NCBI GenBank assembly: GCA_944392945.1
Contig: CALXYJ010000004.1
Location: 12,934 to 76,933 of the forward strand
Source of the DNA: an uncultured Clostridia bacterium
GTDB lineage: Bacteria > Bacillota > Clostridia > TANB77 > CAG-508
Direction of reading: 5' to 3'
DNA: 64,000 bases
The translations under genes and the position numbers were made by a program. Below the pieces are notes generated by a model. That model had not been told where the DNA came from. It made no database searches and saw nothing but the letters and a program-made list of their open reading frames with translations. Positions 2,871 to 46,823 of the stretch are shown piece after piece. Every line of letters starts with the position of its first letter. The first letter of the stretch is position 1.

Positions 2871-3108
2871 CATATTAATATAAACGTTAAATAAGAGACT
2901 AGTAACATACCTAATTTTTTTTAGAGAGTTTACGGTTGGTGTAAGTAAATAAAAATTATATGCGAATCTACTCTTAGATGTTTTTAGTGAAAGCTAAACC
3001 GTAAGTTAGGCGGTTATCCTACTAATTGAGTGTATTATTTTTATAATAACTTAAGGTGGCACCGCGGATTATATTTCGTCCTTATATTTTTATATAAGGA
3101 CGATTTTT
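2871..3108 (+). promoter_or_regulatory. T-box riboswitch leader, serine specifier (UCU)
   Basis: AGAGAG box (2923-2928); specifier context GAA-UCU-A (UCU at 2967-2969); F-box-like CCGTAA; T-box motif GGTGGCACCGCG (3055-3066); terminator TCGTCCTTATA/TATAAGGACGA plus T-run (3076-3108). Confidence 0.85.
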
Positions 3109-3174: not shown

Positions 3175-3399
3175 ATGGATCATGTCGAAGTTGGAAAAGT
3201 TTATCGTCATTTTAAAGGAACATATCATCAAGTATTAAATATAGCATTAAATTCGGAAACTCAAGAAAGAATGGTTGTATATAACCATAAAGATAATGGA
3301 CAAATTTGGGTAAGACCTGAAAAAGAATTTTTAGAAAAAATTCCAAAAAGGTCGGATAATATTACAGGTCAAAAACATAGATTTGAAAAAATAGATTAA
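3175..3399 (+). CDS. DUF1653-family small protein
   Basis: VGKVYRHFKGTYHQVLNIALNSETQERMVVY...WVRP pattern typical of DUF1653. GGAGG 7 nt before the ATG. Confidence 0.65.
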   Translation: MDHVEVGKVYRHFKGTYHQVLNIALNSETQERMVVYNHKDNGQIWVRPEKEFLEKIPKRSDNITGQKHRFEKID

Positions 3400-3459: not shown

Positions 3460-4746
3460 ATGATAGATATTAAATTTTTAAGAGAAAATCCTGACATTGT
3501 TAAGGAAAATATTAAGAAAAAATTTCAAGATGAAAAACTAGTATTAGTTGATGAAGTTATAGATTTAGATAAAAAGTCTAGATCTGCTCAGCTTGCGGGC
3601 GATGAATTAAGAAATAAAAGAAAAACATTAAGTGCAGAAATTGGTAATTTAATGAAAAATGGTCAAAAAGATGAAGCAGAAAAGATAAAAGCTGAAGTTC
3701 AAGAGATTAACAATAAATTAGAGGAAAATGAAGCTTTAGAAAATAAATATGCTGAAGAAATTAAAACAAGAATGATGAAAATTCCAAATATTATGCATGA
3801 CTCAGTTCCTATAGGAAAAGATGATAGTGAAAATGTAGAAATCGAAAGATTTGGAGAACCTATAGTTCCAGACTATGAAATTCCATTTCATGGAGAAATA
3901 TTAGAAGCATTAGGTGGATTAGATTTAGATAGTGCAAGACGTGTTGCAGGACAAGGTTTCTATTATCTTATGGGAGATGTTGCAAGACTTCATTCTGCAG
4001 TCTTAACTTATGCCAGAGATTTTATGATAAATAAAGGATTTACCTATTGTATCCCACCTTACATGATTAGAAGTGACGTTGTAACAGGTGTTATGAGCTT
4101 TGAAGAAATGGATGCTATGATGTATAAAATAGAAGGAGAAGATTTATACTTAATAGGTACAAGTGAACATTCTATGATTGGAAAATTTAAGGGTCAAATT
4201 TTAAGAAAAGAAGATATGCCTTATACAATGACATCGTATTCTCCTTGCTTTAGAAAAGAAAAAGGTTCTCATGGTTTAGAAGAACGTGGCGTATATAGAA
4301 TTCACCAATTTGAAAAACAAGAGATGATAGTTGTTTGCGAACCAGAAGATTCTTGGGATTGGTATAATAAAATGTGGTCTTATACAGTTGAATTTTTTAG
4401 AAGTATGAATATTCCTGTAAGAACTTTAGAATGTTGTAGTGGTGATTTGGCAGACTTAAAAGCAAAATCTTGTGATGTAGAAGCTTGGAGTCCAAGACAA
4501 AAGAAATATTTTGAAGTTGGAAGTTGTTCTAACTTAACAGATGCACAAGCTCGTAGATTAGGTATTAGAATAAAAGGTGAAAAAGGAAACTATTTTGCAC
4601 ATACTTTAAATAATACTGTAGTTGCTCCACCACGTATGTTAATTGCAATTATGGAAAATAATTACCAACCAGATGGAAGTGTAATTGTGCCAGAAGTTTT
4701 AAGACCATATATGGGCGGATTAGAAAAAATTGAAGTAAAAAAATAA
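3460..4746 (+). CDS. serS: Seryl-tRNA synthetase
   Basis: N-terminal coiled-coil arm. Class II motifs (FRKEKGSHG, GVYRIHQFEKQE, SCSNLTDAQARRL...NNT). Confidence 0.95.
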   Translation: MIDIKFLRENPDIVKENIKKKFQDEKLVLVDEVIDLDKKSRSAQLAGDELRNKRKTLSAEIGNLMKNGQKDEAEKIKAEVQEINNKLEENEALENKYAEEIKTRMMKIPNIMHDSVPIGKDDSENVEIERFGEPIVPDYEIPFHGEILEALGGLDLDSARRVAGQGFYYLMGDVARLHSAVLTYARDFMINKGFTYCIPPYMIRSDVVTGVMSFEEMDAMMYKIEGEDLYLIGTSEHSMIGKFKGQILRKEDMPYTMTSYSPCFRKEKGSHGLEERGVYRIHQFEKQEMIVVCEPEDSWDWYNKMWSYTVEFFRSMNIPVRTLECCSGDLADLKAKSCDVEAWSPRQKKYFEVGSCSNLTDAQARRLGIRIKGEKGNYFAHTLNNTVVAPPRMLIAIMENNYQPDGSVIVPEVLRPYMGGLEKIEVKK

Positions 4747-4832
4747 AGTAATTGTAAGAACAGTTATATTATTAAAATAAAAATTTTAGTGCATATTTTA
4801 TAAATATCCTTAATATATTTTTATATTGCAAA

Positions 4833-4860
4833 AAGAAGTTCATTTGAACTTCTTTTTTTA
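4833..4860 (+). terminator. serS terminator
   Basis: AAGAAGTTC-attt-GAACTTCTT followed by a T-run. Confidence 0.7.
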
Positions 4861-4878
4861 CAAATTTCTGCTATTTTA

Positions 4879-4907
4879 TTGCCTTTAATTATATAGAGTG
4901 ATATAAT
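4879..4907 (+). promoter_or_regulatory. Promoter of the PurA-family cassette
   Basis: TTGCCT, 17 nt, then TATAAT with extended TG (TGATATAAT). Confidence 0.5.
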
Positions 4908-4970
4908 TTCTTCGTAAGTTTTTATGGTAACTTTTGTTCCTATTGAAATGTCATATAAGGAGGTAAATAA

Positions 4971-6314
4971 GTGAATAAAAATGTAACAGTAGTTGTTGGC
5001 TCTAAGTGGGGCGATGAAGGTAAAGGTAAAATTGCCTCTCGGGAAGCCAAAAATGCAAAACTTGTAATTCGGGCAACCGGCGGGAGCAATGCTGGACACA
5101 CTATTGTATATAATGGTGTAACATTAGCTCTTCACCTTATACCAAGCGGAATTGTGTATCCACAATCCACGGCTATCATCGGTCCTGGTACTGTAGTGGA
5201 TCCGCAGATTTTGCTTATTGAAATCAAGATGCTTGAACAAATGGAAATTCCAAATATCCATGAACGTCTTAAGATCAGTGGCAAAGCACATGTAGTATTT
5301 CCATGGCATAAATATTTGGATGAACTGCATGAAACAGTTAAAAAGCATCCAATCGGAACTACCAAACGTGGAATTGGTCCGGCCTATGCTGATAAAGCTT
5401 CTCGAAAAGGACTCCGGATTTATGATCTTCTTCTTCCTGTTGATGAAATTGAAAAAAAGATTTATGAAAATGTTTATCTTCATAATCAGCTTTTTATTGC
5501 AAACGGGATGGATGAATGTGTAGTGAATCCACATGAAGCAGCTGTTCAATTTTCCATTTATGGCAATCAGCTTCGCCACTATGTTACAGATATAACTCCA
5601 CTTTGCACTGAGGCTATATCAAATAACGAAAAAATCGTTATTGAAGGTGCCCAAGCATACAGATTGGATAATGATGATCCAGAATATCCAAATGTAACAT
5701 CATCACATCCTGTAACATGTGGAGCCATATTAGGAGCTGGACTTCCACCTCAGGCTTTAAAAATTTCTATCGGAGTGGATAAAGCCTATAATACCCGCGT
5801 AGGTAATGGTCCTTTTCCAACAGAGCTTCCTTCATCTATCGGAGAAGATGGAAATATTATTGAAAACCATCCTGTTATGGAAGGAGATATTATCCGAGAA
5901 CTTGGATACGAATATGGAGCCACCACTGGAAGACCACGCCGTTGCGGTTGGATGGATGCAGTAATGCTTCGCTCTGCTAAATATGGATGTGGAATTGATG
6001 TTTTGTGTATCAATCACCTGGATACATTGGGAAAAATCGGAAATAAGATCGGTTATGTTAAGGTTTGTGTTGCATACACGTACATGGGTAAAACTATCAG
6101 CTTTTATCCTGATGACACAAGTCTTACACATGAGATTCCCTCCCCCATTTATGAAACAATTGAAGGTGGATGGGAAATCACATCAGATATGAAATCATTT
6201 ACCGACCTTCCTGAAAAGGCTCAGCAGTTCGTAAAAATTGTTGAACGCGTTTCCGAGATTCCTGTGAAATTTGTTGGCATTGGACCAGCAAATGACGATA
6301 TTATTGAAGTATAA
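4971..6314 (+). CDS. purA: Adenylosuccinate synthetase family protein (divergent, compositionally foreign)
   Basis: GSKWGDEGKGK, GGSNAGH, IGTTKRGIGPAY, EGAQ, NVTSS, GATTGRPRR, GIGP. GTG start 7 nt after AAGGAGG. About 47 G+C per 100 nt in a hand-counted sample. Confidence 0.85.
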   Translation: MNKNVTVVVGSKWGDEGKGKIASREAKNAKLVIRATGGSNAGHTIVYNGVTLALHLIPSGIVYPQSTAIIGPGTVVDPQILLIEIKMLEQMEIPNIHERLKISGKAHVVFPWHKYLDELHETVKKHPIGTTKRGIGPAYADKASRKGLRIYDLLLPVDEIEKKIYENVYLHNQLFIANGMDECVVNPHEAAVQFSIYGNQLRHYVTDITPLCTEAISNNEKIVIEGAQAYRLDNDDPEYPNVTSSHPVTCGAILGAGLPPQALKISIGVDKAYNTRVGNGPFPTELPSSIGEDGNIIENHPVMEGDIIRELGYEYGATTGRPRRCGWMDAVMLRSAKYGCGIDVLCINHLDTLGKIGNKIGYVKVCVAYTYMGKTISFYPDDTSLTHEIPSPIYETIEGGWEITSDMKSFTDLPEKAQQFVKIVERVSEIPVKFVGIGPANDDIIEV

Positions 6315-6351
6315 ATCTACTGTTACCAAAAAGCTTACAAAGTTACAAAAA

Positions 6352-6387
6352 AGAGAGCATTACCTGTGGGTGATTGCTCTCTTTTAT
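6352..6387 (+). terminator. Terminator of the PurA-family cassette
   Basis: AGAGAGCA...TGCTCTCT stem followed by TTTTAT. Confidence 0.55.
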
Positions 6388-6471
6388 AAAATAATCAGTT
6401 TATTTTTTTATTTGCCAAATTAGTTTATTTTATGGTAAAATATATAAACATTAAATGTGAGGAGAATTAAT

Positions 6472-7053
6472 ATGATAGTAAAAGAACCTAAATTTGAAAT
6501 TTCTGCTGTTGGTCCAAAACAATATCCAACAAATAATTTACCAGAAATTGTATTAGTTGGAAAATCCAATGTTGGTAAATCTTCTTTTATAAATACCTTA
6601 ATTAATAGAAAAAAATTAGCCAAAACTAGTAGTGAACCTGGTAAAACAAGACAAATTAATTTTTATAATATAGATTCTAAATTTTACTTTGTAGATTTAC
6701 CTGGATATGGATATAGTAAAATGTCTAAAAAAGAACAAATAATTGTTGGTAATTTTATAGAAGAATATCTACATAAAAGGAAACAAATAGCATTAATCAT
6801 TTTTCTTGTTGATATTAGGCATAGACCAACTGAAAATGATAAATTAATGTACAATTATATAATTAGTAGTAAAATACCTTTTATAATTATTGCAAATAAA
6901 GCTGATAAAATAGCAATTACTAAAGTCGAAAACTCTGTTTTGGAAATCCAAAAAGCTCTAAATCCAATTGGTGACATAACTACCTTACCTTTTTCTTCAG
7001 AAAGAAAAATTTATACAGAATCTGTATGGAATGAAATTGAAAAATATATTTAA
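6472..7053 (+). CDS. engB: Ribosome-biogenesis GTPase EngB/YsxC
   Basis: G1 GKSNVGKSS, G3 DLPGYG, G4 NKADK. GAGGAG 7 nt before the ATG at 6472 (ORF open from GTG 6457). Confidence 0.9.
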   Translation: MIVKEPKFEISAVGPKQYPTNNLPEIVLVGKSNVGKSSFINTLINRKKLAKTSSEPGKTRQINFYNIDSKFYFVDLPGYGYSKMSKKEQIIVGNFIEEYLHKRKQIALIIFLVDIRHRPTENDKLMYNYIISSKIPFIIIANKADKIAITKVENSVLEIQKALNPIGDITTLPFSSERKIYTESVWNEIEKYI

Positions 7054-7066
7054 ATTTAGTATCATC

Positions 7067-7111
7067 GAGAAAGGCGATATTCATTACTAATAAATATCGC
7101 CTTTCTCTTTT
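7067..7111 (+). terminator. engB terminator
   Basis: 14-bp stem GAGAAAGGCGATAT/ATATCGCCTTTCTC followed by TTTT. Confidence 0.7.
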
Positions 7112-7126
7112 AATTCTAATGTTGGT

Positions 7127-8134
7127 TTACAGTGCAACTAAAATTGTCATTTTCTGCTCGTCTTCTTTTTTTATTAATGATTCTGAAACTGCCTCTTCTA
7201 CAACTTTATTAAAGTCTTTACCACCCATTTGTATTGCATATTTAGCCGAACTATATTCGCTCTTTCCGCCATTACGCAACACATAATAATAGAGGCGCCA
7301 GATAGGAAATATCTCATAACTCCCTTCCTTCATGATATCCCTATATTTGATTGCATTTATAGAAATCAATGTCCGAATAACCCTGGTTAAAGCTTGTTGA
7401 TTGGCTTTAAATCTCTCCTGAGCTAATGAAACTACAAATGCATCCTTTTGAGGAAACATGTACTTCAATATACCATCATATTCGCTTTTAGTAAGCATAT
7501 CCTTGAAAATCTTTTTCTTTTCCTCATTGGTATACTGCGGATAGTTCTCTTTTTCTCCATCATCTTTAGCTTCCTCTACAGAAACGTTTGATGCTTCGGA
7601 AGGCTGTTCATTACCTTTTTCAGCATCCGGATTTTTCTTTGCTTCTTGCGCCTTTGTTTTTTCCGGCTGTTTTTCTTCTGGAATCAGTTCCGATTTTTTA
7701 TGCAAAAAATATTTACAATCGTCTTCATTCCTATCCAGCATTCTTTTTTTATCCATACAGCGTAATACGTTATATGCAGAACTATAACTTATATCCAAGG
7801 CTGCAGCCACTTCAGTCGTTGAATAAGATTTACCTGTACTCATAAGTGTAAGGATTCTTTCTTGAATAGTTACAGTTTTGTTTTTAGTTTTTTCTTCAGG
7901 TCTAGGACTTTCATCTTTTGGAATCTCTTCTTTGCTTTCATCAATTTTTTCAAATGTTACTTGCTTTACGAGATTACACTCCAAAAGATCTAAGAAGATC
8001 TTTGAAACGGTCGATTGTGAATCAACGGAGCATTTTAATTCTCCATCAAAGTCTATTCCTTCAATGGACCGATTCAAAATTTTTTCTAAGATCCTCTTTT
8101 GAGCCTCTGGATTTTTTGTTTTAATTAATACCAT
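7127..8134 (-). CDS. Hypothetical protein with central winged-helix (MarR/ArsR-like) segment, acidic linker and second helical C-domain (335 aa), on an atypical-composition cassette
   Basis: AAGGAG 6 nt before the ATG at 8134 (ORF track starts at TTG 8155). wHTH-like TIQERILTLMSTGKSYSTTEVAAALDISYSSAYNVLRCM. Three shadow ORFs lie inside. Confidence 0.6.
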   Translation of the reverse strand: MVLIKTKNPEAQKRILEKILNRSIEGIDFDGELKCSVDSQSTVSKIFLDLLECNLVKQVTFEKIDESKEEIPKDESPRPEEKTKNKTVTIQERILTLMSTGKSYSTTEVAAALDISYSSAYNVLRCMDKKRMLDRNEDDCKYFLHKKSELIPEEKQPEKTKAQEAKKNPDAEKGNEQPSEASNVSVEEAKDDGEKENYPQYTNEEKKKIFKDMLTKSEYDGILKYMFPQKDAFVVSLAQERFKANQQALTRVIRTLISINAIKYRDIMKEGSYEIFPIWRLYYYVLRNGGKSEYSSAKYAIQMGGKDFNKVVEEAVSESLIKKEDEQKMTILVAL

Positions 8135-8242
8135 AAGGATCTCCTTTCTTAGCAAATCTGCGAGTTACAATGACATTTCTTTTATACACCATTCCTTTCT
8201 TAAATTATTTTACTTAAGATGTCTCAACTATTAGCATGGCTT

Positions 8243-8271
8243 TATTTTATCATAATATACATTTTTTTACA
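8243..8271 (-). promoter_or_regulatory. Promoter of the 335-aa gene
   Basis: Minus strand TTGTAA, 17 nt, then TAAAAT with extended TG (TGATAAAAT). Confidence 0.4.
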
Positions 8272-8302
8272 ATAATCTTTCCATACTAGGTAATTGTCCC
8301 AC

Positions 8303-8336
8303 AAAAAAAGATTGTAGCTAATCTACAATCTTTTTT
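8303..8336 (-). terminator. Terminator of the sortase-DUF951 unit
   Basis: AGATTGTAG/CTACAATCT stem with a T-run on the minus strand. Overlaps the DUF951 stop codon. Confidence 0.65.
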
Positions 8337-8497
8337 GTTATCATTTTTAATGCCTTTTGCCTTTCTACTAAAATAAAATGTCCACATCCTTCACACTTAA
8401 GTCCAAAATCTACTCCAACTCTTGTTATCTTCCATAATTTACTCCCACATGGATGTGCTTTTTTAGTTTTTACTATATCCCCCACATTATATTCCAT
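8318..8497 (-). CDS. DUF951-family small protein (59 aa; below the ORF-track cutoff)
   Basis: Own translation: MEYNVGDIVKTKKAHPCGSKLWKITRVGVDFGLKCEGCGHFILVERQKALKMITKKIVD. The HPCG...C-x-GCGH pattern matches YyzM/DUF951. The ATG overlaps the sortase TAA by 1 nt. Confidence 0.7.
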   Translation of the reverse strand: MEYNVGDIVKTKKAHPCGSKLWKITRVGVDFGLKCEGCGHFILVERQKALKMITKKIVD

Positions 8498-9240
8498 TAT
8501 AACACCTCTGTTGCTTTTACAATAATTCTTTCCTTTGAATCATCTGTACAAGTAATTAAAGTAATATCTTTTCTTCCATTAGTTAATGGACTTATTGGTG
8601 ACATATCATCATCTGAAACTTGATATTTATTATATACTGTATACTTAACAGTTCTTCCCTTTGTATCTGTTATTTCTATTATATCTCCATTTTCCAATGT
8701 TGGTACTTTACTAAAAAATTTTTTATTTCTATAATTATGTCCTGCTATACAAAAATTTCCTACTTCATTTGGCTCACCTTCCCAAAATCTAGTTGGTGCT
8801 TTTTTTAATAGCTCATCCGTTGTTTCTGATAATATTGGATAATAAATATCTATTTTAGGTATTTTTATAGTTGCAATTGGATAATATTTTTGTCCATCAG
8901 ATGTTGTATACTCTTTAGACAATAATTCATTTTCTTCTGTTGTCTCTTCTTCAGAAGAAGCACCACTATCTGCATTTAATGTATTTGCATCATTATCTAA
9001 CATTACAACTAATTTATCTGTAGGTTTAGTTGTTTGGTCTTCTCCAACAATATTGGCTTGTGCCAATATATCTTGAGAAACTGCTTCATCTTTATTTTTA
9101 TCATATTCTGCATATATATAATAAGAAGATAATACACAAACAATTACAAGAGAAATGAAAAATTCAAATTTGTAAAATTTTTTCTTTCTCTTTAATTCTG
9201 GCGTTATATATAGTTTTTCAGTTACAAGAATTTGATTCAT
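8497..9240 (-). CDS. Sortase-family transpeptidase
   Basis: N-terminal TM anchor, His in FCIAGHNY, catalytic TLITCT motif. GGAGG 5 nt before the ATG at 9240. Confidence 0.8.
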   Translation of the reverse strand: MNQILVTEKLYITPELKRKKKFYKFEFFISLVIVCVLSSYYIYAEYDKNKDEAVSQDILAQANIVGEDQTTKPTDKLVVMLDNDANTLNADSGASSEEETTEENELLSKEYTTSDGQKYYPIATIKIPKIDIYYPILSETTDELLKKAPTRFWEGEPNEVGNFCIAGHNYRNKKFFSKVPTLENGDIIEITDTKGRTVKYTVYNKYQVSDDDMSPISPLTNGRKDITLITCTDDSKERIIVKATEVL

Positions 9241-9335
9241 GATTACCTCCTTTTTTATCTTTTTATCCGAATACATTATACCATCTTAAGTATTTTTTTT
9301 CAATAATTGTTAATATGTTTTTAAAATACAAAAAT

Positions 9336-10190
9336 TTATTTATATAAAATATTTGATATGCTAGCAAAATCTTCTATCTTTAATTTTTCACTCCTAATTT
9401 TTTCATCTATATTTAGTTCTTTTAAAATTCTAGATAAAGTTTCTTTATCTGATATTCCGTTATTTGTTAGTGCATTTAATAAGGTTTTTCTTCTTTGCAA
9501 AAAAGCAATTTTTATTAAATTAAAAAATGCTTTTTCATTATGTATCTCTACAGGAGGCTGTTTCCTAATTTTTATTTTTATAACTTCTGATGTTACAGCA
9601 GGTTCTGGAATAAAAGATGTATTTGGAACTTCCAAAATTTTTTCTGCAATTCCATAATAATAAACTGTATATGTTATTGCACCAGTATTTTTTCCTCCAG
9701 GTATTTCTGTAAGCCTATCTGCAACTTCTTTTTGAATCATTACTGTGATACTTTCTATATTAATTTTGTTTTCTAATAAATTCATAATTATTGGAGTTGT
9801 AATATAATATGGTAAATTTGCTACTATTTTAGCACTTTTTAAATTATATTTTTCTTTTGCATTTTGTATAATTTTATTTAAATCTACTTTTAATATATCA
9901 TCATTAATAACTTCAAAATTTTTATATAAAAAGAACCTCTCTTTTAATAATTCTATCATTCTTTTGTCTAATTCCACACATATAACTTGTCCAGCTCTAT
10001 CTAATAAAAACTTCGTTAAGGTACCTAAACCAGGGCCTATCTCTATTACTAAATCATCAGAACTAATATCTGATTCATCTATTGCTGTATTTATAACATT
10101 TTCATCAATCAAAAAATTTTGTCCTAAATTTTTATTAGCTTTTATATTGTATTTTTCCATTAAAAATTTTGTTTCTTGGTATAAATTCAT
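9336..10190 (-). CDS. rsmA: 16S rRNA (adenine1518/1519-N6)-dimethyltransferase
   Basis: LGQNFLID, SAM motif IEIGPGLGTLT, NLPYYITTPI. Confidence 0.93.
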   Translation of the reverse strand: MNLYQETKFLMEKYNIKANKNLGQNFLIDENVINTAIDESDISSDDLVIEIGPGLGTLTKFLLDRAGQVICVELDKRMIELLKERFFLYKNFEVINDDILKVDLNKIIQNAKEKYNLKSAKIVANLPYYITTPIIMNLLENKINIESITVMIQKEVADRLTEIPGGKNTGAITYTVYYYGIAEKILEVPNTSFIPEPAVTSEVIKIKIRKQPPVEIHNEKAFFNLIKIAFLQRRKTLLNALTNNGISDKETLSRILKELNIDEKIRSEKLKIEDFASISNILYK

Positions 10191-10295
10191 TTTCTATCTC
10201 CATTTTCATTTTATAACTTTCATTTAATTATAACAGCCCTACTTAAATTATGTCAAATTCTTTTGTGAAAAATATGTGATTTGGTTGATTTTGGT

Positions 10296-10326
10296 AAATA
10301 CTTAATATACAATATATTAAGTATTT
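10296..10326. repeat. Perfect 14-bp inverted repeat upstream of the PBP gene
   Basis: AAATACTTAATATA-caa-TATATTAAGTATTT, 40 nt before the ATG at 10367. Confidence 0.8.
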
Positions 10327-10366
10327 GTTAATATTTAACATAAATTCGTTTAATTAGGTGATTCAT

Positions 10367-12679
10367 ATGAAAAAGAATAATAAAAAATTTAGATTTCCAA
10401 AATCAAAAAAATCAAATTCAAAATTATATAAATCTGCCAATAATGAATTTGCAACAAATTCACTGGCAATAAAAAAATTCAGAATAGTACTAATCTCATT
10501 ATTAATTATATTTTTATTATTAATAATAAGACTTATATGGCTTCAATTTGTGCAAGGAGCTGACTTAAAAGAACAAGCATATAATCAACAAACTACAGAT
10601 CAAATTATTAGCACTAGTAGAGGTACAATTTATGATGCTACAGGTAAAAAATTAGCAATAAGTACTCCAACAGATACCGTCTCAGTTAATCCTAAACAAA
10701 TTGTTGGTTCTACAGATGAGGAAACTAAAACTAAAAAAGAAAAAATAGCTAAAGCGTTTTCAGAAATTTTTGAACTAGATTATGATGAAACTTTAGAAAA
10801 ATTAAATAGTAACTCTAATGTTCAAACTATTGCTAAAAAAGTAGATAAAGATAAGATAGATAAATTAAAAGAATGGATGCAAACAGAAAAAATAAGTACT
10901 GGTATTAATATTGATGAAGATACTAAAAGAGTATATCCATATAATAATTTAGCTTCAAATTTAATAGGATTTTGTGGTACAGATAATACTGGAATACAAG
11001 GTTTAGAAGATAAATGGAATAGTGTTTTACAGGGTACTCCTGGTAAAATAACAACTTCAACAGATGCTATTCAAGAAGAAATACCAGATAGTAACCAAAC
11101 ATATATCCCTGCAGAAAATGGTAGTGATATTGTTTTAACAATTGATGTATATATACAAACAATTGTAGAAAAATACCTAAAACAAGCTGTTGAAGAAAAC
11201 CATGCTGATAGTGGTACTGTTGTTGCAATGGCTCCTAGTACTGGTGATATTCTAGCTATGGCTTGTTACCCAGATTATAATTTAAATACACCATTCGAGC
11301 CAAATACTGAAGAATTAAAATCTGTATGGGATACACTAGATTCTGCTACTCAATCAGAGGAATTATATAATATGTGGAAAAATGATGTTATTTCTTCTCC
11401 TTATGAACCTGGTTCTCCATATAAATTGATTACTGCAGCTACTGCATTAGAAGAAAATATTACAAGTGAAGATGTTCCAAATGATTTTTATTGTGATGGT
11501 TCAATAAAAATAGGAGATAGAACTATTAGTTGTTGGACACAAGCACATAAAGGTGGAAAATCCTTAAGGCAAGCTTTACAAGTTTCTTGTAATCCATCCC
11601 TAATTCAATTAGGTCAACGTATTGGTGCAGAAACTTTATATAAATATTACCAAGCATTTGGATTTTTTGATAAAACAGGAATCGATTTACCTTCTGAAGC
11701 AAGTAGTACATATTGGGATTTAGAAGATGTTCATGAGGTAGAACTTGCAACAATGTCTTTTGGGCAAAGATTTACAATTACACCAATTCAGTTAGTATCT
11801 GCTGTATCTGCAATAGCAAATGATGGAATCTTAATGAAACCTAGAATTGTAAAACAAATTATAAATCCAGAAACAAATACAACAACAGATATTGAACCTG
11901 TACAAGTAAGACAAGTTATCTCTAAATCAACTTCAGAAAGAATGAGAAACTTAATGAAATCTGTTGTAGATGATGGTTCTGGTAGACTTGCAAAAGTTGA
12001 AGGCTATTCTATAGGTGGTAAAACTGGTACTTCAGAACCTCAAACTGGTAGAGAAGATGAAGGTTATATTGCATCTTATGTAGCCATTGCTCCTACAGAA
12101 AAACCCGAAATTTGCTTATTAATAGCTGTACATAATCCAAATCCAAATAATGAAGGTAGCCACCAAGGTGGTCAAGTTTGTGGACCAGTTGTTTCACAAA
12201 TGTTATCAGAAATTCTACCATATATGGGTATAAATTCTAATAATACTCAAACAACTACAGATCCCGTAGAAGAAGATTCAAATTATGTTACTGTTCCAGA
12301 TATCAGGAACAAAACAGTTACTGAAGCAGAAAAAATACTAAAACAAGCTGGTTTTACAACAAAGATTTCTATTTCTGGAGATAAAAATTCAACTTTAGTT
12401 ACAGACCAAATGCCAAAACCTGGTTCTAGCATACCTAAGGATTCTATTATAATATTATACTCTGAAGAAAATGATACTAGAGTTTCTGTAAAAGTACCTG
12501 ATTTTAAAAATAAAACATTAGCACAAGCAGAAAATATAGCTAAGGCAAGTAATCTAAATATAACCTCAGAAGGTTCCGGAACAGTTATAAGTCAAAGTAT
12601 AATGGTTGATACTGCTGTTGAAGAAGGTACTATTATAAAATTAACTTTATCAACTGATAATGATGGAACCAATCAATAA
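10367..12679 (+). CDS. Class B penicillin-binding protein (FtsI/PBP2B/SpoVD family) with two C-terminal PASTA domains
   Basis: TM anchor, SxxK (SPYK), SxN (SCN), KTG (KTGT), two PASTA-like repeats near the C-terminus. AGGTGA RBS before the ATG at 10367. Confidence 0.88.
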   Translation: MKKNNKKFRFPKSKKSNSKLYKSANNEFATNSLAIKKFRIVLISLLIIFLLLIIRLIWLQFVQGADLKEQAYNQQTTDQIISTSRGTIYDATGKKLAISTPTDTVSVNPKQIVGSTDEETKTKKEKIAKAFSEIFELDYDETLEKLNSNSNVQTIAKKVDKDKIDKLKEWMQTEKISTGINIDEDTKRVYPYNNLASNLIGFCGTDNTGIQGLEDKWNSVLQGTPGKITTSTDAIQEEIPDSNQTYIPAENGSDIVLTIDVYIQTIVEKYLKQAVEENHADSGTVVAMAPSTGDILAMACYPDYNLNTPFEPNTEELKSVWDTLDSATQSEELYNMWKNDVISSPYEPGSPYKLITAATALEENITSEDVPNDFYCDGSIKIGDRTISCWTQAHKGGKSLRQALQVSCNPSLIQLGQRIGAETLYKYYQAFGFFDKTGIDLPSEASSTYWDLEDVHEVELATMSFGQRFTITPIQLVSAVSAIANDGILMKPRIVKQIINPETNTTTDIEPVQVRQVISKSTSERMRNLMKSVVDDGSGRLAKVEGYSIGGKTGTSEPQTGREDEGYIASYVAIAPTEKPEICLLIAVHNPNPNNEGSHQGGQVCGPVVSQMLSEILPYMGINSNNTQTTTDPVEEDSNYVTVPDIRNKTVTEAEKILKQAGFTTKISISGDKNSTLVTDQMPKPGSSIPKDSIIILYSEENDTRVSVKVPDFKNKTLAQAENIAKASNLNITSEGSGTVISQSIMVDTAVEEGTIIKLTLSTDNDGTNQ

Positions 12680-20182: not shown

Positions 20183-21073
20183 ATGTTTAAAGAGAAATTC
20201 GATTTTTACGATAAAACAGTTTTAAAATCTTATGACTTAGATTCGGCTGCAAGATATCAGTTAAAAATGTTAGATTCCTTAGATAATTTTACTAGAAAAC
20301 ATTCAGAAAGTGTCGCAAATTTAACTTGTAGAATTTGTGATTATTTACATTTAAACAAGGATTTTACTATATATTGCACCACATGTGCATATTTACATGA
20401 TATTGGAAAAATGTTCATTCCTCCTTCAATCTTGCAAAAACCTGGTAAGCTTACAGATGATGAATATGAAATAATGAAAACTCATACAAGTATTGGTTAT
20501 AAAATGTGCATGAATGACACTAAATTAAGACCATATTCAGCTGGTCCTAGATGGCATCACGAAGCTCTAGATGGAAGTGGATATCCAGATGGGTTAAAAG
20601 GAGACAAAATTCCTATAGAAGATCAAATTATTAGAGTTGCAGATGAGTTTGACGCAATTGTTAGTAAAAGACAATATAAATCCCATGTTGGTATAACAGA
20701 TACCTTAAAAATGTTAATAGAAAATGCTCATTCTGGAAAAAATAACATACCTGCCACAAAAGCCTTAAAAAAAGTTGTAATAGATGATACTATTTATGAG
20801 ATTTCTTGTACTTTTGATTATTTAGATTATCTAAAAGAAAATATAAAAAGATTAAAACAAATAAAAAAATACTATGATAAAATGACTTCTTCACATTCTC
20901 AAAAACAAAAAAATTATTATTTAGAAGGCATGAAAATGCTTTTTACAGAAGGAGAAACTGAAGAAAATTTCCAAAATATTTTATCAGAATATAAAGAAGC
21001 TTTAAGTTCTAGATCACAGGTTATAGACAAATTAAATGCTGAACTAAAAGAAATTAAAAAACTAAAAATATAA
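20183..21073 (+). CDS. HD-GYP domain protein (putative cyclic-dinucleotide phosphodiesterase), paralog 1
   Basis: YLHDIGK, KTHT, HHEALDGSGYPDGL, RVADEFDA. Coiled-coil C-terminus and no sensor domain. Confidence 0.8.
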   Translation: MFKEKFDFYDKTVLKSYDLDSAARYQLKMLDSLDNFTRKHSESVANLTCRICDYLHLNKDFTIYCTTCAYLHDIGKMFIPPSILQKPGKLTDDEYEIMKTHTSIGYKMCMNDTKLRPYSAGPRWHHEALDGSGYPDGLKGDKIPIEDQIIRVADEFDAIVSKRQYKSHVGITDTLKMLIENAHSGKNNIPATKALKKVVIDDTIYEISCTFDYLDYLKENIKRLKQIKKYYDKMTSSHSQKQKNYYLEGMKMLFTEGETEENFQNILSEYKEALSSRSQVIDKLNAELKEIKKLKI

Positions 21074-21099
21074 TTTATTTACACAAAAGAGGAGATTAA

Positions 21100-22035
21100 A
21101 TGCTAGATAATAAATTTGATTTTTATGATAAAACTACATTAAAGTCGTACAATTTAGATGTTACAATGAGATATCAACTTACAATGTTAGATAGTCTTGA
21201 TCCATTTACTAGAATTCATAGTGAAAATGTAGCAAGTATTACTTGTAGATTATGCGAATATTTACATTGTGATAAAAACTTTACTTCTTATTGTACTATT
21301 TGTGCATATTTACATGATATTGGGAAAATGTTTATTCCACCTAAAATATTAAACAAACCTGATAAACTAACAGATGACGAATTTGAAATAATGAAAACTC
21401 ATACACTTATTGGGTATAAAATGTGCATGGATGATATTAGATTAAGACCATATGCATTAGGTCCAAAATATCATCACGAAACATTGGATGGAACAGGTTA
21501 TCCAGAAGGATTAACTGGTAGTTTAATTCCATATGAAGATCAAATTATAAAAGTTGCAGATGATTATGATGCTTTAGTTACTAAAAGGCAATATAAAACT
21601 CATATTCATATATCAGATACATTAAAAGATTTATTAAAAGATACTGAACCTAATATAAAAATTGCAGCACTAGATAATGCAGCCCAAGGCGTACGACTTG
21701 GAAAACTTAATAAAAAAGTTGTTAAAGCTTTATTTAAAGTTGTAATTGATGATACTTATTACGAAATTTCTTGTGTTACAGGATATGTTGATTATTTAAA
21801 AGATCAAATAAAAAGAATTGAAAAAATATTAGAATATGAAGAAAAAATGAATAAATCTAATTCCGAAAAAAAGAAAAATTACTACAAGGAAGGAATGGAA
21901 ATCTTATTCCAAGATGGCGAAAATTTTAATAATATTCATCAAATATATCATGAATATCAAACTGCATATTCAATAAGAAAAGATATGGTTCAAAAATTAT
22001 ATAATGAGATAAAAATAATTAAAAAATTAAATTAA
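21100..22035 (+). CDS. HD-GYP domain protein, paralog 2
   Basis: YLHDIGK, HHETLDGTGYPEGL, KVADDYDA. Collinear with the upstream paralog. Confidence 0.8.
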   Translation: MLDNKFDFYDKTTLKSYNLDVTMRYQLTMLDSLDPFTRIHSENVASITCRLCEYLHCDKNFTSYCTICAYLHDIGKMFIPPKILNKPDKLTDDEFEIMKTHTLIGYKMCMDDIRLRPYALGPKYHHETLDGTGYPEGLTGSLIPYEDQIIKVADDYDALVTKRQYKTHIHISDTLKDLLKDTEPNIKIAALDNAAQGVRLGKLNKKVVKALFKVVIDDTYYEISCVTGYVDYLKDQIKRIEKILEYEEKMNKSNSEKKKNYYKEGMEILFQDGENFNNIHQIYHEYQTAYSIRKDMVQKLYNEIKIIKKLN

Positions 22036-25522: not shown

Positions 25523-26284
25523 CTATCTCTTTCCTTTTCTTTTTTTATTTCTTCTTTTTCTATTATTATGTATCACAAACTCCTGATTAGTTTGAGAATT
25601 TTTTTGTTCTTCATTTATATTATTATCTATTTTTGTTTCTGTATTCTCATCCTTTTCTTCTTCATTTATTACATCATTTGTTGTCTCTTCTACTGACTCT
25701 GTATCTATATTTTCTTCCTCTTTTTTCTCATCTTTTACTTGGATTTCTTCTTTTTCCTCTTCTTCTATTTCTTCCTTAGTCTGTGGTTCTTCTTCCTTAG
25801 AAATATCTTTAGAATTACTATCAGAATTATCATCTACTTTTACTTCTGACTCATCGCTTTTTTCTTCATCTTTAATTTCTTCTTTTACATCTTCTTTAGA
25901 TGTATCACTTGAAATATTATTTTTTTCTTCTTTAGCCTCTTGTTCTTTTTCTTGAACTTTCTCTTTTACTTCATCATCCATTTCACCTGTATGTTTAATA
26001 CTAACTATTGGAATGTTTGCATATAAAGCTGGTGCTAAAGTTGTTCCATCTTCACTAGTTTTATTTGTTAGATGAACATCTATCTCACTTTCATCTACAT
26101 CTATATATTTCTTTATTACATCTATAATTTCTTGTTTCATCATTTCTAGGAAATCTGCAGAAACATTCGCTCTATCTTGCATTAAAACTAGATGTAATCT
26201 TTCTTTTGCCATATCTTTATTTTTTTCTTCTTCCTCTTCTTTTTTAAATATTTTTTTAAAGAAACCTACTATATTTTCAAACAT
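25523..26284 (-). CDS. minE: Cell-division topological specificity factor MinE with a long acidic C-terminal extension
   Basis: Residues 1-97 are MinE-like (AKERLHLVLMQDRANVSADFLEMMKQEIIDVIKKYIDV...ANIPI). A further 155 aa are E/K/D/N-rich and end in RKRRNKKRKGKR. Confidence 0.8.
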   Translation of the reverse strand: MFENIVGFFKKIFKKEEEEEKNKDMAKERLHLVLMQDRANVSADFLEMMKQEIIDVIKKYIDVDESEIDVHLTNKTSEDGTTLAPALYANIPIVSIKHTGEMDDEVKEKVQEKEQEAKEEKNNISSDTSKEDVKEEIKDEEKSDESEVKVDDNSDSNSKDISKEEEPQTKEEIEEEEKEEIQVKDEKKEEENIDTESVEETTNDVINEEEKDENTETKIDNNINEEQKNSQTNQEFVIHNNRKRRNKKRKGKR

Positions 26285-27273: not shown

Positions 27274-28923
27274 TTAAACAATAAAATCCGCAGAATAAAA
27301 GAAGGCAAATAAACGAATATATTTCTCCTTTGTTCCAATATTCCGCTGTGATTCGACAAATTCCTCTCTTGAAATATAATTATTATCAAGAGCCTCCAAA
27401 ACTTTATTGATTTTGGAAAAATCCGCATTTTTACTCGAAAGATTATTAAGAGAATATTTCCGTAACTCCTTTTTAATATTTTCTTTATAATCTTCCATTG
27501 CTTTTTCGCATATTCTAGCGATTTCTTCGTCGTCGTTCTCTCTCCACAGTCCATGGCGTAAAGCTGCAAGTGCTTCTACTTTAGTATCAGCTTTTTCGAT
27601 TCCTCCTGCAACTACTTTTAAATCATCCATTAAACTTTTGAGGATTTCTTCCATGGCCAATCCTTTAATTTTTTCTTCGCTCTGTTTATATGCTTTTTCT
27701 AAATTGTCAGAGTCAATCTCTTTAAGTTTCAACAGGAAAAGAGACTCCATGAATTTCCAATCTTCATTTACTCCTTTTCTTTCCATTTCATTTACCATAA
27801 TTGGCCTAATCAAACGAAATGTTTGAAACAACCAGCAAATTTCGTTCAATAGATCTTCATATTCCCATGGTGCCTTATATAATGAATCTAAATCTAAGAA
27901 CTCTATTTTTTGGATAATCAGACTCTTTAGCTTTCTAGCCATAACAACAGCCTCATTTATTACAGCATTTCTTTCTTCTTTTTTTGAAAGATTAAAATAC
28001 ACTGCAATAAATTCTTCATCGCTTAAAACAATTGCTTGTGCAAGGTTAAAATAATAATTTTCAGCAATCAATTGTTCAGAAGAACACTCTGTCTTAATTT
28101 CAGCAATACTTTGTTCGATTCTGTGGATACTTTTAGTACTGAAAATTTTAGGCTCATATAAAAAATTTTTCGCATTTGCCAAAGCTTTCCAAAAAGTAAC
28201 TCTTTCTTTTGTTAAGCTCTTGAAGATATTGTTGTACAAAACATCCTTTAAGCTAACATCTTCCAGAATTACCCACGGCAATGAGGCACTTTCTAAACCT
28301 CTTTCTAAAATATCCAAAATAATTAAGATATAATAGATTACCCTGTGAATCATTCGTTCTTCATACTTTCCAGACACCTCTTTTATATTGCTTAAAATTT
28401 TGTCCGGTAATATTATTTTTGACAGGTCTGATTCAAAATCTACTATAAAAGCTTCACCTCCGTTAATATCTGGTAAATAAATTTCCGGTACTTGAAAATT
28501 TTTATTTTTCTCCTCATTTAACACTTTTTTTAGGAAAGACGTATTGTCTAATGCATCAAGAATTACATCTATGGTATGAACTTTTGCGACTTCTCTTTCC
28601 TCTGTTGCAATTTTAAGTGGCTTACCTAAAACAGCAATTCCAATCTGAGTCAGTAAATTATATTCTTCATAGATTTCTTTTTGTAATTCATTCATCTCAC
28701 CATATAAAATCTGCTTAATATTATCCCAGAGATTTCTGGCCCTTTCCATACTCTTTTCATTATTATGCATTACTGCATAAATCCGTTTTGAATACATTGC
28801 TGAAAATTTTAAATTTTCTAACTCCTCCTTATCCAAGTTCTTTTTTGCAACGGCTCTTAAGTTTCCAAAATACATGTCGAACTCCTTTAGTTCTTTTGGT
28901 CTTAATTTTGGTCTAATAATCAT
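27274..28923 (-). CDS. Hypothetical 549-aa predominantly helical protein, no recognisable catalytic motif
   Basis: ORF track. AAAGGAGG RBS. About 34 G+C per 100 nt in a hand-counted sample. C-ending and GC-rich codons are more frequent than in neighbours. Confidence 0.65.
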   Translation of the reverse strand: MIIRPKLRPKELKEFDMYFGNLRAVAKKNLDKEELENLKFSAMYSKRIYAVMHNNEKSMERARNLWDNIKQILYGEMNELQKEIYEEYNLLTQIGIAVLGKPLKIATEEREVAKVHTIDVILDALDNTSFLKKVLNEEKNKNFQVPEIYLPDINGGEAFIVDFESDLSKIILPDKILSNIKEVSGKYEERMIHRVIYYILIILDILERGLESASLPWVILEDVSLKDVLYNNIFKSLTKERVTFWKALANAKNFLYEPKIFSTKSIHRIEQSIAEIKTECSSEQLIAENYYFNLAQAIVLSDEEFIAVYFNLSKKEERNAVINEAVVMARKLKSLIIQKIEFLDLDSLYKAPWEYEDLLNEICWLFQTFRLIRPIMVNEMERKGVNEDWKFMESLFLLKLKEIDSDNLEKAYKQSEEKIKGLAMEEILKSLMDDLKVVAGGIEKADTKVEALAALRHGLWRENDDEEIARICEKAMEDYKENIKKELRKYSLNNLSSKNADFSKINKVLEALDNNYISREEFVESQRNIGTKEKYIRLFAFFYSADFIV

Positions 28924-36691: not shown

Positions 36692-37420
36692 TTATTTATC
36701 TCCTGTAGCTATATAATAGCCAACTCCTCTTTTAGTTATTAATATTTTTGGATTAGATGTATCTTCTTCTATTTTCTCTCTTATTCTTCTTACAGTTACA
36801 TCCACAGTTCTTATATCTCCATAATATTCATAACCCCAAACTTTTTCTAACAAAGTTTCTCTTGTTACAACTTGACCTAATTGGTTAGCCAAATATTTTA
36901 ATACTTCAAACTCTCTTAATGTTAAGTCTATAACTTTATTTTTTACTCTTGTTTCAAATTTATCTACATCTAATTGTAAATCTCCTACAATTATTTTATT
37001 TGTATTTGGTTCTGGCATACCTTCTTCATAATTGCCTTTACCTTTTCTTAAATTTGCTTTTATTCTTGCCATTAATTCCCTTATACTAAATGGTTTTGTT
37101 ATATAATCATCTGCTCCTAGTTCTAACCCTAGTATTTTATCTATTTCTTCTCCTTTGGCTGTTAGCATTATAATAGGAACATTTAAAGTATGTCTTATTC
37201 TCTTGCAAACAGATAATCCATCCATTTTAGGAATCATTATATCTAATAATATTAAATCAGGAGTTTGATTTAAAGCTATATCTACTGCTTTTTCGCCATC
37301 TGTTGCTTCTAGAGTATTATAACCTTCTTTCTCCAAATTATATACTAACATATCAATTATTGGTTGTTCATCATCCACAATTAATATTGTTTTTTTATCG
37401 CTGTTTGTTTCGCTTTCCAC
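36692..37420 (-). CDS. OmpR-family response regulator (WalR/YycF-like)
   Basis: Receiver ILIVDDE...LILLDIMIPKMDG...MLTAK. Winged-helix output LTLREFEVLKYL...RTVDVTVRRIREKIE. Confidence 0.9.
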   Translation of the reverse strand: MESETNSDKKTILIVDDEQPIIDMLVYNLEKEGYNTLEATDGEKAVDIALNQTPDLILLDIMIPKMDGLSVCKRIRHTLNVPIIMLTAKGEEIDKILGLELGADDYITKPFSIRELMARIKANLRKGKGNYEEGMPEPNTNKIIVGDLQLDVDKFETRVKNKVIDLTLREFEVLKYLANQLGQVVTRETLLEKVWGYEYYGDIRTVDVTVRRIREKIEEDTSNPKILITKRGVGYYIATGDK

Positions 37421-37586
37421 AAATGTTCCACCTTTCTCTTTTTTATTTGGAATATCCAGTTAAAATGTAGCTAATATTTTAGTTTTACTTTAATATAACT
37501 GCATTAATCCAATCAAAAAATTCCATATATATTTTATATCACAATCTGGAAATTTGTACAAGCTATTTATAAAAGTTTTTCATTAA

Positions 37587-38498
37587 TTACAATAAGCTTG
37601 CAGCTCCTATTATACCAGCATCATTTCCTAAACTTGCTAATACAATTTCTATTTCTTTTCTTGGATTAAATAACAATTTTTCATCTTGAATCTCTTTCTT
37701 TAGTTTAGGAATAATTAAATCACCAATAAAAACAAAGCTTCCTCCAAGACTTACTATTTCTGGCTCAAATATATTAATTAAATTAGATATTCCAATTGCC
37801 AAATATTGCACATATTCCTCTATTAATGGTTGCACCCTTAAATCATTAATATGTTCTCTAATTTCTTTTACAATGCTTGCACCAGTTTGATTTTCATCTA
37901 ATTGTAAAGTTTCTATTATCTCTCTTTTTAAAACTTTCATTGAGCAATATGTTTCAAAACAACCTTTGCTTCCACATTTACACACTCTTCCATCTTTCTG
38001 GATTATCATATGGCCAAATTCCATTCCAGATTTATATCTAGGCTCTACTAATTTATTACTTAAAAATGCTGCTCCACCTATTCCTGTACCTAAACATAGA
38101 TATATATTATCTTGTGCTGTTTTTGTACTTCCATACATACTTTCTGCAATTCCAGCACATTTAGCATCATTTTTTATTTTTACCTCTAAATCAAACTCTT
38201 TTTTTATATATCTAGCTATATCTAATTTTTCTAGCCCTAAATTAACCACATTATATATACAGTTATTTTCTATATTTCCTGGAGATGCAATTCCAATATA
38301 TCCAATCTCCTTTGTTTCTATATCTTGTTCTTTTAGAATTGATTTTATAAAATTTATAATTGTATTTATAATCATTTTTTCTATATTTTTTTTATCTTTT
38401 TCTGTAATATCTACTTCTTTTTTATTTATTATTTTTCCACTTGATCCTACAAGTCCCACTCCTATGTGACTTCCTCCTATATCTATCCCTATATTCAT
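37587..38498 (-). CDS. ROK-family sugar kinase (glucokinase-like)
   Basis: IGIDIGGSHIGVG, GTGIGGA, zinc motif CKCGSKGCFETYCS. Confidence 0.85.
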   Translation of the reverse strand: MNIGIDIGGSHIGVGLVGSSGKIINKKEVDITEKDKKNIEKMIINTIINFIKSILKEQDIETKEIGYIGIASPGNIENNCIYNVVNLGLEKLDIARYIKKEFDLEVKIKNDAKCAGIAESMYGSTKTAQDNIYLCLGTGIGGAAFLSNKLVEPRYKSGMEFGHMIIQKDGRVCKCGSKGCFETYCSMKVLKREIIETLQLDENQTGASIVKEIREHINDLRVQPLIEEYVQYLAIGISNLINIFEPEIVSLGGSFVFIGDLIIPKLKKEIQDEKLLFNPRKEIEIVLASLGNDAGIIGAASLL

Positions 38499-46804: not shown

Positions 46805-46823
46805 AGATTAAATTCTTTATTGC
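46798..46823. terminator. Bidirectional hairpin spanning both convergent stop codons
   Basis: GCAATAAAG-attaaatt-CTTTATTGC. Confidence 0.5.

Follow-up and report, generated by a model that had tools for sequence, protein, structure and literature searches.

Results

A single-gene purA unit between serS and engB

We study the gene that lies between serS and engB in a 64,000-nucleotide stretch of DNA from an uncultured Clostridia bacterium (contig CALXYJ010000004.1; the whole 64-kb stretch is called the window here, and positions are counted from its first letter). The gene is purA, a coding sequence (CDS) of 447 amino acids with a GTG start (4971..6314, + strand), which the list of open reading frames (ORFs), family profiles, a structure model and base composition together identify as a long-subfamily adenylosuccinate synthetase (AdSS) of a GC-rich allele class. 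Its conserved flanks are serS on the left (3460..4746, +; Pfam Seryl_tRNA_N and tRNA-synt_2b) and engB on the right (6472..7053, +), which encodes a YihA/EngB GTPase (Pfam MMR_HSR1). An earlier description made from the letters alone (the sequence-only reading) had taken purA for a foreign cassette inserted between two housekeeping genes, and had raised the possibility that the PurA fold was recruited here for other nucleotide chemistry. We find instead that it is very probably the lineage's own purA, a canonical AdSS gene forming a single-gene unit in the ancestral serS-purA-engB order of a low-GC gut Clostridia clade.

The layout is that of a self-contained transcription unit, just as the sequence-only reading had it, with a promoter-like site, a ribosome-binding site and a terminator hairpin of its own. 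The ribosome-binding site AAGGAGG (4957..4963, +) can be read directly 7 nt 5' of the GTG. The promoter-like site, TTGCCT-17 nt-TG-n-TATAAT (4879..4907, +), agrees with the consensus at 10/12 positions and has the TG of an extended -10; it is a consensus match only, and matches of this quality are no rarer in the window than in shuffled sequence. A perfect 11-bp inverted repeat with a 15-nt loop (I15, 6349-6359/6375-6385) makes up the purA terminator (6349..6385, +), while the serS terminator (4830..4860, +) consists of a perfect 13-bp inverted repeat (I6, 4830-4842/4845-4857) and a T run. Both hairpins were missed by a simple terminator scan because its loop-length and GC rules excluded them. 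Another promoter-like site, TTGCCA-18-TAAAAT with a TG and again 10/12 positions (6412..6441, +), precedes engB. With this arrangement, a sigma-A-type promoter belonging to purA alone would drive it as a one-gene transcription unit. No leader or riboswitch was found in the spacers, where the sole match was a chance match of a miRNA model to the terminator hairpin. The motifs quoted in the sequence-only reading are all present where it placed them, and its count of six shadow ORFs of at least 60 amino acids holds as well: six lie entirely within purA, with one more running across its 5' end.

purA as a compositional outlier in the window

The purA CDS has a GC content of 39.6%, as against 27.3% for the window, and is the most GC-rich segment of 1344 nt in it (0.397, roughly +4 standard deviations (SD); mean 0.274, SD 0.031, runner-up 0.341). 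In a comparison set of the 49 window ORFs of at least 150 amino acids, purA has the highest GC at first codon positions (GC1, 0.55), a GC at third positions (GC3) of 0.262 where the mean is 0.137 (SD 0.051), and, under a model built from the rest of the window, the least likely synonymous codon choices. Thirteen of its 15 arginine codons are CGN and 19 of its 30 leucine codons are CTT, whereas elsewhere in the window 79% of arginine codons are AGA and 67% of leucine codons are TTA; within purA the shares of AGA, TTA and CTT are 13%, 10% and 63%. Window GC and codon likelihood thus uphold the claim that composition and codon usage look foreign for the host genome. The hand counts on which that claim was based (47, 21 and 28 G+C per 100 nt) are exact on recount, and of the codons named as enriched, CGG (3), CCG (2) and GCC (7) are so while CTC occurs once.

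Two accounts of this bias were considered and rejected. The first is an 'A-sparing' purA message, suggested by the lowest overall A and the lowest A at third positions (A3) of the 49 ORFs together with normal T. We dropped it because A and T fall jointly at four-fold sites (A4 0.318 versus 0.425, T4 0.452 versus 0.529); the asymmetry in A comes from leucine TTA giving way to CTT, arginine AGA giving way to CGN, and purine-ending two-fold codons. The second, a translational codon bias tied to high expression, fails because purA runs counter to rplT, rpmI, infC and the pyruvate:ferredoxin oxidoreductase (PFOR) genes: these favour AGA and TTA and reach A3 values of 0.46-0.67.

Three ORFs without a Pfam domain (2048-2626, 7127-8155 and 27274-28923, all on the - strand) have GC3 of 0.27-0.33. 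For the first two, the same-position counterparts in close relatives are 27-40% identical where neighbouring genes are 80-98% identical, and 7127-8155 gives weak winged-helix-like PADLOC matches (E about 1e-3). All three retain AGA and TTA, and for this reason the codon pattern of purA is distinct.

Gene order in relatives and the question of insertion

To compare the locus across species we use a scan in which each species is represented by a single genome; it gave 68 loci (denoted by L numbers). About 60 of them come from metagenome-assembled genomes (MAGs) of uncultured gut 'Clostridia', and the scanned relatives include Candidatus Merdicola faecigallinarum (NCBI: Clostridia incertae sedis); this long-PurA clade is probably the GTDB order TANB77. 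Nearly all of the roughly 60 clade loci show the arrangement DUF1653-serS-purA-engB with order and orientation unchanged, and serS-purA-engB still holds at PurA identities as low as 51-52% (L079, L080). In L077 extra genes are interposed, in L081 and L049 serS is inverted, and in the deepest branch of the subfamily (L082, L083) purA lies between uvrB and dnaG-sigA. Because the order is shared by about 60 loci down to 51% PurA identity, purA is not a recent insertion. The sequence-only reading had itself named serS-purA-engB synteny in relatives as the observation that would count against its 'clean single-gene insertion'. That synteny is found in close and distant relatives, many of them with equally raised composition, and the claim falls with it.

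The window has the minimal serS-purA-engB layout, and relatives vary in the cargo that they carry around purA. Upstream of purA, a metallophosphoesterase and a 133-amino-acid ORF are found in L001 (4875-5891); L069 has a related metallophosphoesterase and an 838-amino-acid ORF downstream of it (7543-10887), and L074 a polysaccharide pyruvyl transferase and a 117-amino-acid ORF (6558-8489). These cargo genes are AT-rich like their hosts.

Some features of the islet stand on their own. Its metallophosphoesterase matches the PADLOC candidate PDC-S10 (E 3.5e-12), and the 838- and 133-amino-acid partners of this enzyme have a common C-terminal motif, the pair being found on either side of purA. The cargo of L077 (2827-4860) comprises two ORFs with no assigned function. 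Outside the islet, the distant relative L079, a genome of 28% GC, has a further strongly GC-rich gene next to engB: the 339-amino-acid ORF that follows it (7475-8494, -) reaches a GC3 of 0.45 and contains part of a RelA_SpoT domain.

How probable is it, then, that a purA cassette from a GC-richer donor entered the serS-engB interval recently? We consider this extremely improbable. The idea draws on the foreign-looking composition and codon usage, on the self-contained transcription unit, on a segment of divergent DNA that coincides with the cassette and on the status of the interval as a variable islet in relatives; yet purA sits in the same slot across the clade, its subfamily is monophyletic with every sampled host low in GC, and the islet cargo matches its hosts in being AT-rich. 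The 64-kb window holds no integrase and no tRNA gene, and the only boundary repeats at the cassette edges are short, AT-rich chance repeats. Phage, plasmid and IMG/VR collections gave no close PurA donor (only PurAs of 39-44% identity, the best of them 41-44%). PADLOC returned no match for PurA, PHROGs matched it only to the generic PurA/PurZ family phrog_1211, and in our literature search we found no paper tying PurA to anti-phage systems or describing a GC-rich purA. Separately, we note the record MT835471.1, an 89-kb human-faecal 'Bacteriophage sp.', which contains at 37235-38491 an unannotated, full-length PurA-like sequence of 43.8% identity and 98% coverage.

Raised GC of purA across the clade

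The 57 loci compared for composition fall into two classes of purA. In the host-like class (35/57), GC3 is about 0.10 and total GC exceeds that of the flanks by about 0.02 to 0.07, an excess to be expected where Gly, Ala, Pro and Arg abound in the product; composition of this kind is found in one derived clade. The GC-rich class (22/57), to which the window and its nearest relatives belong, has GC3 of 0.19-0.48 and total GC of 0.35-0.48 between flanks of 25-31% GC, with the excess spread across the whole gene; many of these orthologs lie at 37-48% GC in genomes of 26-31%. L082 and L083 belong to the GC-rich class too; since the excess is thus also seen in the uvrB-purA-dnaG context, it is a property of the gene and not of the locus. 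No GC-rich host carrying the long-PurA subfamily was found among the hosts sampled, all of which are low in GC. High GC and atypical codon usage are therefore not a mark of recent arrival; they are a trait of purA in many members of this clade. A look for synonymous variation at the population level found none: four contigs that encode P0002 and three that encode P0004 have identical purA DNA within each set.

Profiles, residues and fold of the product

The protein matches Pfam PF00709 (Adenylsucc_synt) from end to end, with 446.1 bits against a cut-off of 27, and passes the NCBIfam equivalog NF002223 (441.4 bits, cut-off 402). It stays below the cut-offs of the PurZ profile NF038379 (110.6 bits, cut-off 300) and of the short-form profile NF003295 (196, cut-off 368). 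Its best PDB sequence matches are all AdSS, that of B. anthracis being the top one (E 1.7e-96).

For residues we use the numbering of E. coli AdSS with Met removed, agreement having been checked on the MG1655 purA sequence. D13, K16, N38, H41, T129, R143, Q224, L228, T239, V273, T300/T301, R303, R305 and D333 are kept in the window protein and in about 120/120 of its nearest relatives. The P-loop GDEGKGK (Asp13, Lys16) and GGxNAGH (Asn38, His41) are kept in 119-120/120, and the aspartate loop GATTGRPRR (window residues 316-324) in 120/120. In terms of the roles that we take over from the E. coli AdSS literature, these residues presumably cover the inosine monophosphate (IMP) site (Thr129, Arg143 of the partner subunit, Gln224, Leu228, Thr239, Val273) and the aspartate loop Gly298-x-Thr300-Thr301-Gly-Arg303-x-Arg305, while guanine specificity is assumed to lie in an (N/T)KxD-like motif with Asp333 and in Ser414-x-Gly-Pro. 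Of the guanine-site elements, Asp333 and Gly416-Pro417 are kept, and Lys331 is replaced by His and Ser414 by Gly across the whole subfamily. Among the non-subfamily PurAs compared, Ser331 occurs in B. anthracis and Gly414 in L055 and L058, which belong to other phyla.

The sequence-only reading had pointed to an odd motif after EGAQ and to extra residues before the aspartate loop. Both are present, and for the most part they are traits of the subfamily and not marks of this gene alone. The segment after EGAQ, AYRLDNDDPEYP (5655..5690, +; E. coli residues 225-236), has A225, Y/F226, R227 and D/E234 subfamily-wide; N230, D232 and N237 are rare, and only P233 (G233P), found in the window allele and in none of the 120 relatives compared, is clearly allele-specific. 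The second segment, SSIGEDGNIIENHPVMEGDII (5832..5894, +), contains the insertion of about 14 residues just 5' of the aspartate loop: a 14-residue gap in the alignment with the B. anthracis AdSS 4m0g falls opposite DGNIIENHPVMEGD. The core of the insertion reads P.EGD.IRE in the subfamily consensus, and its block is modelled at a predicted local distance difference test (pLDDT) value of about 78. Together with T34 (118/120), A225-[Y/F]-R227, D/E234, H331 (120/120) and G414 (120/120), this insertion marks the long-PurA subfamily, which is monophyletic and separated from other PurAs by a stem of 0.31 substitutions per site.

An AlphaFold model from a 52-sequence alignment has an overall pLDDT of 91.5 and a predicted template modelling (TM) score of 0.90. 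It superposes on the B. anthracis AdSS 4m9d with TM scores of 0.89/0.94, and the top 31 Foldseek matches are all AdSS (0.78-0.90 when normalised to the query, 0.88-0.94 to the target), compared with 0.55-0.62 for PurZ/DgsS structures. The ratio of nonsynonymous to synonymous rates (omega) against close relatives is 0.10-0.13, and purA is therefore under purifying selection.

From sequence and model, we predict that the purA product is a working AdSS. It would convert IMP, L-aspartate and guanosine triphosphate (GTP) to adenylosuccinate, guanosine diphosphate and inorganic phosphate. By analogy with established AdSS enzymology, Asp13 and His41 would catalyse the formation of 6-phosphoryl-IMP from GTP, aspartate held by Arg303, Arg305 and Thr301 would then displace the phosphate, and Arg143 would reach in from the partner subunit of the dimer.

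That a PurA fold was turned to PurZ-like or some other nucleotide chemistry, its specificity for substrate or nucleotide donor shifted by the insertion, by H331/G414 and by the changed LDxDxGxYP segment, appears very improbable to us. K331H, S414G and Q34T affect positions that we take to be GTP or IMP contacts in E. coli AdSS, but Ser331 and Gly414 also occur in other PurAs compared, and all known contacts to IMP, Asp and Mg2+ are kept along with the guanine-specifying Asp333. The long stem of the subfamily, the G233P change unique to the window allele and a TIGR00184 cut-off that is barely passed speak for new chemistry; the hidden Markov model score for PurZ (110 against 300), the TM scores (0.55-0.62 for PurZ/DgsS against 0.89 for AdSS), the missing PADLOC match and the lack of any other purA in the conserved locus of any relative speak for the old one. 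With ligand residues intact, equivalog cut-offs passed, the PurZ profile failing and a fold that matches AdSS, the proposal of a recruited fold is not borne out.

We also consider it improbable that the gene is an extra copy, a second purA paralog whose main counterpart lies outside the window. The genome can be seen over 64 kb only, and the scan patterns are partly subfamily-specific (KWGDEGKG) and could miss a canonical copy; the scan nevertheless gave one locus per MAG, the gene is under purifying selection in a clade-wide syntenic position, and the genomes of this clade, which are small (reduced sizes being mentioned for TANB77), presumably leave little room for redundancy.

One scanned PurA stands far apart from the rest. 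The purA of L062 (6001-7287), from the cultured gut Lachnospiraceae strain [Ruminococcus] torques ATCC 27756, encodes a protein that shares only 30% identity with the PurA of the window and whose branch in the tree is very long. It has a Leu aligned at Gln224 (EAQL against EGAQ), which may reflect an alignment shift or a divergent PurA.

Discordant histories of purA and its flanks

The window carries an allele of the GC-rich class, and the history of this allele conflicts with that of its flanks. Relative to the closest relatives, identity is 96-98% for SerS and 92% for EngB but 74-75% for PurA; relative to L008 and L002 the values are 93-95%, 89% and 64-65%. At the nucleotide level, identity to L001 is 84-97% in serS, collapses in the spacer, is 51-84% in purA and stands at about 90% at the start of engB. 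In neighbour-joining (NJ) trees, the group of the window, L001, L069, L008 and L002 has 100% bootstrap support from SerS+EngB and 0% from PurA, while a group of all host-like alleles has 100% from PurA and 0% from the flanks. It follows from these conflicting groupings that three host lineages hold both allele classes. The ratio of PurA to flank divergence is 1.0-2.1 for host-like alleles and 2.4-5.8 for closely related GC-rich ones, and the PurA of L002/L008 is nearer to another host group than the flanks predict (ratio 1.0). Root-to-tip lengths differ little (1.28 versus 1.18), which argues against simple acceleration.

The tree conflict lies inside the clade and gives no pointer to an outside donor. 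One part of the xenologous purA proposed in the sequence-only reading therefore survives, in the weak form of a probable allele exchange within the clade; insertion from outside does not. The explanation that we prefer for the conflict is that a diverged member of this clade supplied a new purA segment through homologous recombination, an event to which we give about an even chance.

A purely vertical history, with a purA that in some lineages, the window's among them, evolves faster, is under weaker selection for the A/T-ending codons of the host and drifts upward in GC3, and with a tree conflict that is an artefact of rate and composition, is possible though in our view somewhat unlikely. 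Amino-acid divergence per transversion at four-fold degenerate sites (4DTv) is indeed about 1.6-fold higher in GC-rich than in host-like alleles, but the root-to-tip difference is too small for the 36% divergence from L008. Drift would suit the raised GC3 of other fast-evolving window ORFs and an intergenic GC (20-25%) above the typical GC3 (about 13%); yet a rough neutral expectation at an assumed GC of about 25% is some 43% AGA and 43% TTA, as against the 13% and 10% observed, with CTT at 63%, and the GC3 of 0.36-0.48 in some orthologs is well over intergenic GC. As for the trees, saturation at silent sites is equally strong in purA and in its flanks, and no PurA pair is unexpectedly similar, points in favour of an artefact, to be set against the bootstrap conflict (100% versus 0%) and the position of the L002/L008 PurA.

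Weighing a resident purA

Our preferred reading, a resident and canonical purA, builds on things that we observe directly: the position of the gene, its family membership, its catalytic inventory, its fold, purifying selection and its status as a compositional outlier. Several results weigh against this reading or parts of it. The TIGR00184 profile is passed narrowly, by about 4 bits (399.9, cut-off 395.55), and G233P replaces the normally invariant Gly of the LDxDxGxYP segment. The lack of a second purA in the 64-kb window, where purB was not found either, favours a resident purA, but the window is all of the genome that is visible and a second copy may lie elsewhere. For the exchange of alleles, we found no pair of genomes whose PurA is much more similar than the flanks predict, and NJ could group slow-evolving, AT-shifted alleles artefactually. 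A deeper coalescence of purA, suggested by synonymous divergence (NG86 dS), is not demonstrable: 4DTv is 0.40 for purA and 0.24-0.48 for the flanks, which puts the silent sites of purA, serS and engB all near saturation. Polarising synonymous changes by parsimony is uninformative, as the serS controls show an equal AT-to-GC excess, a known artefact. Finally, the persistence of the GC-rich state is unexplained.

A tentative proposal for this last point, which we rate as unlikely, is that a gene-specific force has held purA 10-20 GC points above the genome over the long term and in two chromosomal contexts, and that one derived sub-clade lost this regime, took on host composition and went over to slower, vertical evolution. 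Such a force could come from recurrent homologous exchange in which species swap purA alleles and repair favours GC, or from selection acting on the purA transcript. If such a force exists, purA would be a natural experiment on the control of single-gene base composition in bacteria; and if clade-wide GC excess and allele discordance hold in complete genomes, they would provide a single-gene case for base composition linked to recombination or selection.

For a resident purA the expected biochemistry is unchanged, namely synthesis of adenosine monophosphate from IMP, and the quirk of this gene is an evolutionary curiosity, not a new system. The practical lesson is more general: a gene that departs strongly in composition and lies between a promoter and a terminator of its own can still be resident and housekeeping, and where horizontal transfer is called from composition in very AT-rich MAGs, synteny has to be checked as well. 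A further outcome is a recognisable 'long PurA' subfamily from uncultured gut bacteria of one clade, marked by the insertion before the aspartate loop, H331, G414 and T34.

Other features of the window

Upstream of the DUF1653-serS unit lies a T-box leader (2878..3086, +; Rfam RF00230, scoring 103.8 bits where the gathering threshold is 93). It is followed by a 74-amino-acid DUF1653 ORF (3175-3399, +) and then by serS, so that DUF1653 is apparently part of a T-box-controlled serS unit; the DUF1653-serS neighbourhood is kept in most relatives. L079 also encodes a dUTPase/DCD protein to which a further DUF1653 domain is fused.

The remainder of the window is core chromosome of a spore-forming bacterium of the Clostridia, with lexA, a sortase gene, ksgA, a penicillin-binding protein gene, SMC, MinDE, PFOR, SpoVA, infC-rpmI-rplT, leuS and addB. 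Adjoining rplT-rpmI-infC is a 167-amino-acid ORF (46817-47320, -) made up almost wholly of a RelA_SpoT domain and resembling small alarmone synthetases. A tandem pair of paralogous HD_5/HD-domain genes (296 and 311 amino acids) occupies 20183-22035 (+). Beside minD, a 253-amino-acid ORF (25523-26284, -) has a MinE domain at residues 23-93 only; we presume that it is far longer than the usual MinE, and it could be an extended MinE or have a miscalled start.

Comparison with known systems

Short archaeal AdSS (Pyrococcus horikoshii 2D7U/5K7X) shares the catalytic core with the window PurA; at about 340 amino acids it matches it in two stretches (E 1e-40), with TM scores of 0.66-0.67 relative to the query. 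PurZ/DgsS, the succino-amino-deoxyadenylate synthase (6FM1, 7ODX, 7VF6), has the superfamily fold and the N-terminal P-loop in common with it, the sequence match covering residues 3-145 only. In contrast to PurZ, which is short (about 290-370 amino acids) and belongs to a phage Z-genome cluster, the window PurA is a 447-amino-acid long form with Asp333, and its gene is chromosomal and syntenic.

The likeness to bacterial PurA (E. coli 1ADE/1CG0 series; B. anthracis 4M0G/4M9D) extends to the P-loop GDEGKGK with Asp13, GGxNAGH with His41, the IMP loop IGTTxRGIGP, EGAQ with Gln224, VTSS with Thr239, the aspartate loop G-x-TTGRPRR and Asp333, to the length class and fold (TM 0.89-0.94) and to equivalog scores over the cut-off. 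Identity is 39% to E. coli PurA and 38-40% to B. anthracis AdSS (Foldseek). The differences are the insertion of about 14 residues, Q34T, G225A/T226Y/L227R, T234E, K331H and S414G, along with G233P in this allele only. Unlike its standard bacterial counterparts, the window purA is also far GC-richer than its own genome.

For this last feature, the closest comparison is the enrichment in GC that is associated with recombination in bacterial genes, and the biased gene conversion hypothesis put forward for it (PLoS Genet 2015, PMC4450053). The present effect differs in being very large (+10 to +20 GC points) and in concerning one gene only. The likeness lies in the alleles themselves: those with raised GC3 are the ones that show phylogenetic conflict and excess divergence, while the host-like alleles look vertical.

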